This document shows positions 41,147 to 46,305 of a stretch of 64,000 nucleotides of DNA, one piece after another (position 1 is the first letter of the stretch; each line of letters opens with the position of its first letter). Made by a program: the position numbers and the translations under genes. This DNA is from Escherichia coli (GTDB lineage: Bacteria > Pseudomonadota > Gammaproteobacteria > Enterobacterales > Enterobacteriaceae). A model generated the notes under the pieces. It made no database searches. It saw only the letters and a list, made by a program, of their open reading frames with translations, and was not told the origin of the DNA. Where the stretch lies: assembly GCF_003334815.1 (NCBI RefSeq), contig NZ_QOWO01000011.1, one strand, 5' to 3'.

Positions 41147-42638
<1,492 letters not shown>

Positions 42639-42666
42639 GTGGCTTTTGAAATGGCGAGACAGAACT

Positions 42667-43545
42667 TTACTGACTCGCCGCAGCCAACTCTTCTTCTGAC
42701 AGCCCGGTAAAGCGCATGATGTCTGCAAGAGGAACTCCGGATTCAAGCATTATTTTGGCTATATGCAGGGCTTTGGATTGTTCCCCCTCCTGCCGCAATC
42801 TTTCCGCAATAGTCATTAAACTCTCCTTGTGTTTCGGTGAACGTTCGGCAACGCCGTCGATAAAATCGTTAAAACGTACAGCGTCGCCAGTTTGCAGTAT
42901 GTAATTAAACAGCCCTTTGATTTGTCTGTCATTAGCGTATCCACTACTTAATAAGCAGGCCATTTGCTCTACCAGCCCCATCAGGTCGCGTTGACGAATA
43001 TGTTTTTGAATTAACTCCAGCAGCGCCATACGTCGGTGCTGCATGATTTCATCATCAGGCATGACGGTGACATCAATCAGCGGAAATGCGGAGGCATAAA
43101 GCTGCCTTGCCAGTTTGGGATCGGCGAAACAATCCAGCCAACACAGCGAATAGGGATAGGGGCTTTCAATACCGTGGTAAAACAACAATGGCACCACCAT
43201 CGGCAACGTTTTGTATCCAGCATCAAGGTGATTTTGCATTGCGGCAATAGCGTAACGCATCATGCGAAATGCGATCAGTTTGTTTGAGGTGCTTTGATGT
43301 TCAATCAGACAATAGATGTATCCTGGTCCTTGTTCCGTTTTCACCGACCACAGCACATCGGAATAGCTTTCACGCAGATCGTCATCAATAAAGCTGCTCG
43401 ACTCCAGCTTGAGGGTTTTCATATCACAAAGCGCGTGAATGGGTGCCGGTAAATGAAACGCAAGAAAATCACGAGCCGTGTCCGGTTGGCGTAAAAAGAG
43501 TTTGAACAGCGCATCGTGTGGGGTGGAACTCTGCTTTTTGCTCAT
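42667..43545 (-). CDS. rpnA: Rpn-family recombination-promoting nuclease / transposase-like protein
   Basis: 292-aa protein (yhgA) of the Rpn/YhgA-like family; no flanking inverted repeats or target duplication visible. Confidence 0.8.
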
Positions 43546-43690
43546 GGCGTTCCTTCACCTGTTGTTTGAATGCCGCGACTCTACGCGCCACTCCACACCT
43601 GTGTATTAGCGAGTTTTCATCCCTGCGAGATGCTTTCAAAGGAACTTACGCCGTGCTGCAAGAGTTGCATTTTTATGGAAAGCCGCACGC

Positions 43691-43725
43691 AAAAAAGCCC
43701 GGATGCAGACGCATACCGGGCTTTC
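43691..43725 (-). terminator. Rho-independent terminator of feoABC
   Basis: Minus strand reads AAAGCCCGG-tatgcgtctgcat-CCGGGCTTTTTTGCG just 3' of feoC. Confidence 0.6.
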
Positions 43726-43747
43726 CAAAACAGGCGATGGAGTAAGG

Positions 43748-43984
43748 TTAACGCAGCGCCCACCACTCGCGCAGACAGGCTTTTCCTTCCGGGCAGCTTT
43801 TACAACTGCCAGAGAGGCAGCCGTCAGGTTCTTCCTGAATCCGCACGGCTTTGCCCATACTTTCCAGTTGTTGCAGCATGGCGTTAATCATTGGCTGTGG
43901 AGTGTTCAATGTCTGGCTTATCTGGGCCGCTTCCATACGGCCCCGTAACGCCAGCAAATCGCGCACCTGAATAAGTGAAGCCAT
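43748..43984 (-). CDS. feoC: Ferrous iron transport protein C
   Basis: ORF-track frame 43748..43993; start at ATG 43982-43984 ([11 protein letters not shown]...); C-terminal Cys cluster; 78 aa. Confidence 0.88.
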
Positions 43985-46305
43985 TAATGGCAATCACCGG
44001 TGGTGCTGGCTGCGCAGCAACTGCTTACCGACTTGCGGGTTGCCAGCAGTTCGATATCCACCCGGCTACGCGCGCGGCGCAGCAGACCGATAACCACGAT
44101 GTTAAACAGGATAACCGCCAGAATGCACACCAGGCTGTAAGTTGGATGCTGACTGTAGCTGGCGACCTGATAGAACAATGTTGCCAGTGAGTAAGCGATA
44201 TTCAGCCCCCACAGGATGGAGAAGCCCATCCAGCCACGGCTTGATTCACGGGCGATAGCCCCCATCACCGAGATACATGGTACATACAGCAGGACGAAAA
44301 TCAGGTAGCTGTAAGCTGCTGCTGCGCTACCGAATTTCTGATCCATCACGCCCATCGCCCCGGTACCCATTTCGCCGTCGCCTTTGCTGGCTTCAATGGG
44401 GTTCATCAGTACGCTAAGGCTGAAGGTGTCTTTCAGGCTCTGCCAGGTTTCATCTATCGCACTGAACAGCTCTTCACCGAGGTTAAATTCTGCCGGATTG
44501 AACTCTTCGTCCTGAATATTTTCTGCGGTGTAGAGGGTGTTGAGCGTACCCACTACCACTTCTTTCGCCATGGCACCTGTAAACAGGCCAACCGTTGCCT
44601 GCCAGTTATCTTCATGCACGCCAATTGGCTTGAAGACCGGGGTGATCACCCGGCTGACGGACGCCAGCGCCGAGTCGTTGATGTTATCGACGATTTTCCC
44701 GCTCAGCGAGAAGCTGTTGAAAGCGCTCAGGAAAATGCTGACGATGATGATCACTTTACCAGCACGCAGAACGAAGCCTTTCAGACGCTGCCAGGTCTGG
44801 ATAATCAGGCTTTTAACGTGTGGTACATGATAGACCGGCAACTCCATGACAAACGGCGTCGCTTCACCGCGCATGATGGTGTACTTGAGCATCAGGCCAG
44901 TCAGCACCGCCATCACAATACCCAGCATATACAGCGAGAAGACCGCCAGCGCACCGTTCTGCCCGAAGAAGGCAGCCGCGAATACTGCGAAGATAGCCAG
45001 ACGCGCGCCGCAGGACATAAACGGTGCCATCATGATGGTCATCAGACGTTCACGCGGTGCATCAAGCGTACGTGCACCCATTACCGACGGTACGTTACAA
45101 CCGAAACCGACGATCAGCGGCACAAAGGATTTCCCCGGCAAGCCCAGCGCCTGCATCAGACGGTCCATCACAAACGCCGCACGCGCCATATACCCGGAGT
45201 CCTCAAGGAAGGAGAGGAACAGGTACATCATGCCAATCTGCGGCACCAGTGGCAGCACGGTGTTAATGCCGCCACCCAGGCCCTGGGCGAGGAAGATAGT
45301 CAGCCAGTCCGGGAAGTGGAGCGTGTAGCCAATCCATTGAATACCATGCACAAATAGCGCCACGGAGCCGACGTCAAACAGCGGCTGTAACGCCCCGCCG
45401 ATGTTGATAGCCAGCAGGAACATCAGGTACATCACAAAGAGGAAAATCGGCAGACCGAGGAAACGGTTGAGCACGATTTTATCTACCGCAGTGGTGAAAC
45501 GGCTGGGTTCTGCCGTCAGGGTGTTGCTTACCACATCACAGATGGCAGCAATGCACTGGTAACGCGCATCGGCAATGTGCAGCGCCGGATCGTCCATCTC
45601 ATTACGCAGACGGGCGAGGGCGGCATCCAGATGCTGCGACGCTTCACCGGCGTAGGCGCGGCTGTAGATATCGCCTTCCAGCATTTGCAGGCCCAGCCAG
45701 CGACGTTGTTTCAGCGGGATGTCGGAAGGCATCACTTTTGCCAGTGAATCTGCTTCGTTGAGCAGCGGCTGTGCGTAATGCACCAGTTCCACATTCTCGT
45801 TAGCTTTATAGCGATCAATCGCCAGCTTGAGCGCTTCAATACCGCGACCACGGGTTGAAACCAGCGGGATCACCGGACAGCCCAGACGCGCCGACAGAGC
45901 ATCAATTTCAATACGAATATTTTGCTTCTCGGCAATGTCGAGCATGTTCAGTGCCACAATGCAGGGAATGCCGAGTTCCAGCAGTTGTAGCGTCAGGTAC
46001 AGGTTACGCTCAAGGTTAGACGCATCCACCACGTTAATCAGCAGGTCGGCGTCGCCACTCAAAATGTAGTGACAGGCGATTTGCTCATCGAGCGAGGTCT
46101 GCGATGAGATGGTGGTCAGAGAATAGGTGCCGGGCAGGTCCACCAGCGTGACCTGATGATCGGTGGTGGAGAATTGCCCTTCTTTACGTTCGACGGTAAC
46201 GCCAGCCCAGTTACCTACACGCTGACGTGAGCCAGTGAGCTGGTTAAATAACGTTGTCTTGCCAGAATTTGGATTACCAATTAAGCCAATGGTTAATTTT
46301 TTCAT
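43984..46305 (-). CDS. feoB: Ferrous iron transporter B (GTPase plus membrane domain)
   Basis: ORF-track frame 43984..46317; start at ATG 46303-46305 ([21 protein letters not shown]); G1 motif GNPNSGKT; 773 aa. Confidence 0.95.

Follow-up and report, generated by a model that had tools for sequence, protein, structure and literature searches.

The closest described relatives of the gene considered here are the other rpn genes of Escherichia coli. RpnB to RpnE of K-12 and the plasmid-encoded RpnP2 share with RpnA an N-terminal PD-(D/E)XK domain (PF04754), an internal start from which a short protein, RpnS, is made, and a helix of four-residue repeats, and each RpnS blocks only its cognate long form, RpnL (PMC10327210). 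Classical type II toxin-antitoxin (TA) systems such as MazEF are similar in that a protein antitoxin binds and neutralizes a protein toxin, and in being mobile, patchily distributed and linked to phage defense. They differ in that the RpnA antitoxin has no separate adjacent gene and is made in frame from within the toxin gene, its sequence being that of the C-terminal domain of the toxin. We analyzed a stretch of 64,000 nucleotides of E. coli DNA (contig NZ_QOWO01000011.1 of assembly GCF_003334815.1; hereafter the window), in which one open reading frame (ORF) is identified by its sequence as rpnA (yhgA, b3411), a well-studied K-12 gene:

42667..43545, minus strand: full-length coding sequence of rpnA from the ORF list (ATG start, stop codon included, 292 aa), encoding the long form RpnA_L.

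Taking the evidence given below together, we consider it highly probable (roughly 0.9) that rpnA is a single-gene TA unit consisting of a nuclease toxin and an intragenic antitoxin. Published work already covers the gene, the enzymology of its product, the antitoxin inside it and the lack of transposon ends, and the main use of the present analysis is annotation correction. A first-pass annotation of the window had pointed to a 292-aa ORF between bioH and the feo operon, in agreement with the ORF list and the neighboring genes, and had read it as a domesticated, recombination-promoting nuclease. The results partly support this reading, which was right about the family and the lack of mobility and dated with respect to function.

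A 1401-bp segment comprising rpnA and both of its flanks matched E. coli K-12 MG1655, as well as many other strains, with 100% identity, and the matching gene in MG1655 is annotated as rpnA, 'recombination-promoting nuclease RpnA'. We found no difference from the MG1655 gene: nucleotide sequence, neighbors, 292-aa product, catalytic residues and internal start are all shared. RpnA scored 694.8 bits with the NCBIfam RpnA equivalog NF007361 (curated cut-off 583) and 160.9 bits with the Rpn subfamily model TIGR01784 (cut-off 52.1), and Pfam PF04754, Transposase_31 (YhgA-like), matched residues 8–209 with an E value of 2e-91. On these matches the protein is assigned to the Rpn/YhgA-like nucleases (PF04754, TIGR01784, COG5464).

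The antitoxin gene within rpnA

The most distinctive feature of the rpnA locus is an internal ribosome-binding site followed by a start codon at Met244, which the first-pass annotation did not contain. The following elements belong to this part of the gene:

42823..42828, minus strand: internal Shine-Dalgarno sequence AAGGAG, formed by the codons of K240 and E241, 6 nt before the ATG of Met244.
42667..42816, minus strand: rpnA_S (start ATG at 42814..42816), encoding the 49-aa antitoxin RpnA_S (RpnA residues 244–292), identical over its 49 residues to PDB 7TH0.
42763..42786, minus strand: segment of variable length, in which the K-12 allele lies near the short end of the range (KGIR is inserted after Q256 in strain PK8261; see the legend to Fig. 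4 of Zhong et al. 2023).

This start, with its ribosome-binding site, is in frame with rpnA at a distance of about 50 codons from the stop codon. Among the 23 in-frame ATG, GTG and TTG codons of the rpnA ORF, it has the best Shine-Dalgarno match, AAGGAG agreeing with AGGAGG at five of six positions. A sequence search of the PDB with RpnA gave one entry, 7TH0 ('RpnA-S'), identical to residues 244–292, and the AlphaFold2 model of RpnA superposed on this structure at 0.5 Å. Conservation was assessed in 60 diverse full-length homologues (29–64% identity) drawn from 7691 representative proteins at E ≤ 1e-3, and methionine was kept at the column of residue 244 in 53 of them.

The published evidence for RpnA_S comprises immunoblotting of an SPA tag (for sequential peptide affinity), a mutant of the internal translation initiation site (iTIS), size-exclusion chromatography with multi-angle light scattering (SEC-MALS), which gave the 2:2 stoichiometry, and cleavage of pUC19 (PMC10327210). 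The combined changes K240R, E241D and M244L in chromosomal rpnA abolished the separately translated RpnA_S, and RpnA_L without RpnA_S inhibited growth. RpnA_S, and not RpnB_S, blocked both RpnA-dependent SOS induction and DNA cleavage in vitro. RpnA_L and RpnA_S formed a 2:2 complex that dissociated at pH 9–10, and cleavage then rose (all PMC10327210).

The mechanism that we consider best supported is the following. RpnA_L, a PD-(D/E)XK DNA endonuclease, requires Mg, responds to Ca with higher activity and cuts with little or no sequence specificity; when uninhibited, it damages the chromosome, induces SOS and slows growth. AAGGAG and the ATG of Met244 drive translation of the last 49 residues as a separate protein, RpnA_S, a three-helix bundle that dimerizes via its long first helix and binds the identical C-terminal domain of RpnA_L to give a 2:2 complex with DNA cleavage blocked. 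Alkaline pH loosens this complex. The nuclease-toxin and antitoxin steps have been shown experimentally for rpnA (Kingston 2017, PMC5350276; Zhong 2023, PMC10327210), and the window contains, in intact form, every sequence element behind the published mechanism. Two further steps are inferred: the RpnA pair may act in abortive-infection-type anti-phage defense, and a phage-dependent signal may release RpnA_L. Since RpnA_S is a dominant-negative fragment of the toxin, toxin and antitoxin are forced to co-evolve.

In 52 of the 60 homologues, the distance from the Met244 column to the next conserved helix position was 15, 19, 23, 27, 31, 35, 39 or 43 residues. These lengths form a 4n+3 series, in which the K-12 allele has 19 residues and the shortest seen has 15. 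The series is an independent re-observation of the hypervariability in four-amino-acid repeats that sets the specificity of L/S pairing. In any gene of the Rpn family, it is worth seeking an internal ribosome-binding site and a methionine codon about 50 codons before the stop.

When RpnA was compared with the PHROGs profiles, phrog_5416 (66-aa profile) matched only the RpnA_S region and phrog_12274 (138-aa profile) matched the C-terminal half. These short families, from phages and prophages, could be free-standing RpnS-like phage genes. A tblastn search against 50,697 phage records found Rpn homologues in 11 records only, mostly as full-length genes or bacterial fragments.

The nuclease domain and recombination

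The N-terminal part of RpnA carries the following features:

42919..43524, minus strand: Transposase_31/YhgA-like domain (PF04754), residues 8–209.
43513..43515, minus strand: codon of D11, the metal-binding residue of motif I; D11A is inactive (PMC5350276).
43294..43359, minus strand: codons of D63 (43357..43359), E82 (43300..43302) and Q84 (43294..43296), the D...ExQ residues of motifs II and III, in strands β2 and β3.

Motifs I–IV of the family have been described as D11, D63, E82-x-Q84 and R94 (Knizewski et al. 2007, PMC1913061). These residues were all present in RpnA of the window, as was the PDDE motif at residues 163–166, which belongs to a conserved helical segment following the PD-(D/E)XK core (approximately residues 8–125). 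Among the 60 homologues, D11 and D63 were each kept in 59, E82 in 57, R94 in 50 and Q84 in 49.

The AlphaFold2 model, built with the homologue alignment, had a predicted local distance difference test (pLDDT) score of 92.3, and the N-terminal 160 residues alone scored 90.4. It shows an α/β N-terminal domain with strands at residues 40–47, 62–70, 73–83 and 116–124, the order of elements being three helices, a strand, two strands, a long helix and a strand, followed by an all-helical part (residues 136–291). D63 opens β2, and E82 and Q84 close β3, as in restriction-endonuclease-like cores, a resemblance that speaks for such a fold without being decisive alone. Together with the extent of the PF04754 match, this layout agrees with the organization that had been proposed for the protein, i.e. 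a nuclease-type N-terminal half and a helical C-terminal half.

Decisive evidence for the nuclease function is the published biochemistry on RpnA itself. The endonuclease activity of RpnA is Mg-dependent and Ca-stimulated, and it has little or no specificity for sequence (Kingston 2017, PMC5350276). The substitutions D11A, D63A, E82A and Q84K abolish the phenotypes of RpnA in vivo; the D63A protein shows no activity in vitro, and D165A is a hyperactive variant (PMC5350276). The proposal of a PD-(D/E)XK nuclease of the Rpn/YhgA family was confirmed by the positive domain search and by the identity of the protein with RpnA.

The same work gave rise to another view of what the enzyme is for. In a conjugal assay, cells overexpressing RpnA show more RecA-independent recombination, with shorter exchanged segments (Kingston 2017, PMC5350276). 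The physiological role of RpnA might accordingly be RecA-independent recombination and gene acquisition in horizontal transfer, as these authors suggested, with RpnA_S as a mere dosage regulator. The loss of the effect in catalytic mutants is in line with such a role, and so are the 3'-OH ends left by cleavage, which are able to prime template switching (PMC5350276). However, the effect was seen on overexpression only, and it was recognized later that RpnA_S had been co-expressed unknowingly in these experiments (PMC10327210). The enzyme is also very slow and non-specific, and neither restriction nor nicking damage mimicked the effect, which leaves its mechanism unclear (PMC5350276). Moreover, L/S specificity is set by hypervariable four-residue repeats, which resemble features of an arms race and not of a recombination function. 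We therefore regard a physiological role in recombination as very unlikely, and the RecA-independent recombination observed on overexpression is probably a by-product of random DNA breaks. The term 'recombination-promoting' thus holds as the description of an overexpression phenotype, whereas the mechanism that is now supported is that of an RpnA_L toxin held by an RpnA_S antitoxin (PMC10327210).

Flanks, copy number and the transposase names

Several database entries would make rpnA the transposase of an insertion sequence (IS), either active or recently inactivated. The Pfam family is called Transposase_31; the second-best NCBIfam match of RpnA was NF007418, 'ISNCY family transposase' (415 bits, below its cut-off of 583); PHROG 3300 is annotated 'transposase'; and one RefSeq genome (hit H104) labels an rpnA allele 'ISNCY family transposase'. 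That the Rpn family is patchily distributed (PMC10327210) would also suit such an origin. RefSeq naming of the locus varies from genome to genome, between rpnA, 'Rpn family recombination-promoting nuclease/putative transposase' and 'ISNCY family transposase'.

The flanks were examined over as much as 200 bp beyond each end of rpnA and approximately 34 bp inside, and compared with 500 dinucleotide-preserving shuffles. With respect to terminal inverted repeats, the best pair between the flanks was 8 nt long and was equalled by 19–59% of the shuffles, depending on the size of the flank; with respect to target-site duplication, the best direct repeat was 7–8 nt long and was equalled by 36–66%. A general repeat finder applied to the rpnA region reported only short pairs at chance level. 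The 200-bp check therefore agrees with the earlier statement that neither kind of repeat surrounds the gene, all flank repeats being within shuffle expectation.

Copy number pointed in the same direction. We searched 5426 complete E. coli genomes, taking a coverage of at least 80% as presence for the 3' segment and the nuclease core. The number of rpnA places per genome had a median of 1 and a maximum of 2, and rpnA was found at the bioH–feoC position in 5425 of the 5426, with the same context in every locus inspected; no rpnA paralogue was present within the 64-kb window. A single-copy gene at one fixed locus is not an active transposon, as the first-pass annotation had held.

The published data concur. 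According to Zhong et al. 2023, no autonomous transposase has a PD-(D/E)XK fold, and the rpn genes, whose regions have variable ends, never had defined ones (PMC10327210); the commentary by Koonin (PMC10400984) agrees with the absence of transposon ends across the family. Purified RpnA, in addition, is a non-specific endonuclease (PMC5350276). The transposase idea has its source in TnsA of Tn7, with which RpnA shares a restriction-endonuclease-like fold in a mobile-DNA setting. TnsA, however, is the PD-(D/E)XK subunit of a heteromeric transposase and functions only when the DDE transposase TnsB and a transposon with defined ends are present. For rpnA there is neither a partner transposase nor an end or a target-site duplication.

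With repeats at shuffle level and a single fixed locus, the transposon reading of rpnA is rejected and effectively refuted, and we give next to no credence to an IS transposase, active or recently inactivated. Following Zhong et al. 2023, we argue that the Pfam label 'Transposase_31' is a historical misnomer; like 'putative transposase' and 'ISNCY family transposase', it is a misleading name for a gene that encodes a nuclease toxin and, inside itself, the antitoxin. Of the earlier word 'domesticated', the non-mobile state stands, and the descent from a transposase that it implies is contradicted by Zhong et al. 2023 (PMC10327210).

Variation among genomes, host role and surroundings of rpnA

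The 194-bp 3' segment containing the ribosome-binding site and rpnA_S was present in 5425 of the 5426 genomes. The nuclease-core segment (window 43030..43468) was absent from 568 genomes and half present in a further 195, so that the core is deleted in 763 genomes (14%) and kept in 86%. The description of rpnA as embedded in the core genome is thus correct for the locus, although not for the nuclease part in these 14%.

Two different deletions explain all the deletion representatives examined. One removes 439 bp (window 43030..43468, approximately residues 26–172) in strains MNCRE44 (locus L002, 1301–2009), AGR4587 and UID2309220013; the other removes approximately 245 bp (window ~43265..43509, approximately residues 13–94), lies between GATGCG microhomologies and was found in strains STEC299 (locus L003, 1287–2192) and MS 57-2. 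All five deletion-type loci inspected contained an intact 49-aa RpnA_S ORF with one substitution (L282V); AAGGAG was found in four of them and AAGGTG in one. Only two deletion events were seen, and the retention of rpnA_S in toxin-deleted loci may be incidental. If it is selected, RpnA_S would have its own role in these loci as an orphan, which we consider unlikely. Were this true, the orphan could serve for 'anti-addiction' or immunity when rpnA-type toxins arrive on plasmids or phages, or as a helix-turn-helix-like regulator.

A second class of rpnA alleles, represented by PK8261 (locus L001, 1501–2590), was found in 854–896 genomes. Its N-terminal 243 residues are approximately 99% identical to those of K-12, and its C-terminal domain is strongly diverged, with the KGIR insertion after Q256. 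Approximately 100 bp downstream lies a degraded K-12-like copy of rpnA_S with an in-frame TAA, and this copy is reminiscent of the free-standing rpnS' genes described with rpnC and rpnE (PMC10327210). Such a second gene can be present downstream of rpnE and rpnC, whereas K-12 rpnA has none and other E. coli rpnA alleles have a degraded one. The toxin deletions with retained antitoxin and the alternative C-terminal alleles constitute a small lead on the evolution of such modules.

The possibility exists that chromosomal rpnA is a selfish or decaying TA remnant without current benefit to the host, fixed by ancient horizontal transfer and now eroding. The two deletions of the nuclease core are what such a remnant would show, as is the fact that RpnA_L is undetectable at native expression (PMC10327210). 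The GC content of rpnA, 0.47–0.48 as compared with 0.53–0.59 in flanking genes (bioH, feoB), also fits; the dip is mild and would be compatible with an old horizontal acquisition. On the other hand, the DNA of the nuclease core is retained in most genomes, and every full-coverage genome listed has rpnA as a complete coding sequence in its RefSeq annotation. The near-identity of the N-terminal part between divergent alleles, together with a diversifying C-terminus, suggests selection rather than drift, and the iTIS and the repeat architecture are conserved family-wide. Decay without function is therefore somewhat unlikely, and we prefer the reading of rpnA as a working TA unit.

As to what that unit would be used for, anti-phage activity has been demonstrated only for the plasmid paralogue RpnP2, against T2, T4 and T-even phages of the BASEL collection (PMC10327210). 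The defense hidden Markov models of PADLOC-DB v2.0.0 gave no match to RpnA, a result that is uninformative in that the 2023 library may predate the Rpn report. The neighbors of rpnA in the window are housekeeping genes, and the K-12 neighborhood is not a defense island; rpnA was thus recognized as part of a defense system neither by model nor by location. In strain K99B (locus L007, 1466–2094), a MazE/MazF-type TA pair lies between rpnA and bioH, beside a third C-terminal allele of rpnA. This insertion indicates that the rpnA–bioH junction can take up other TA cargo.

The surroundings of rpnA in the window are as follows:

41868..42638, plus strand: bioH, converging with rpnA.
43748..43993, minus strand: feoC, the last gene of feoABC.
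43691..43721, minus strand: intrinsic terminator of feoABC, read from the sequence as GCCCGG, a 13-nt loop, CCGGGC and TTTTTT.

The stop codons of rpnA and bioH are 28 bp apart, and rpnA lies downstream of feoC after a gap of 202 bp. A scan also reported a terminator-like site at 43710..43697, and the feo terminator bounds the promoter region of rpnA (43546..43690) on its upstream side. A scan of 42600..43800 for the sigma-70 consensus at the default threshold found no promoter. A relaxed scan gave weak candidates only: upstream of rpnA, TACACA-16-TAGAGT at 43605..43578, and within the gene a single poor site. Zhong et al. 2023 inferred an internal promoter from differential RNA sequencing (PMC10327210), and no site found by the scans of 42600..43800 could be assigned to it. 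The Rfam scan of the window placed no family near the rpnA locus; the only family reaching its gathering score was the small RNA RyhB at 5724..5788 on the plus strand (83.1 bits).
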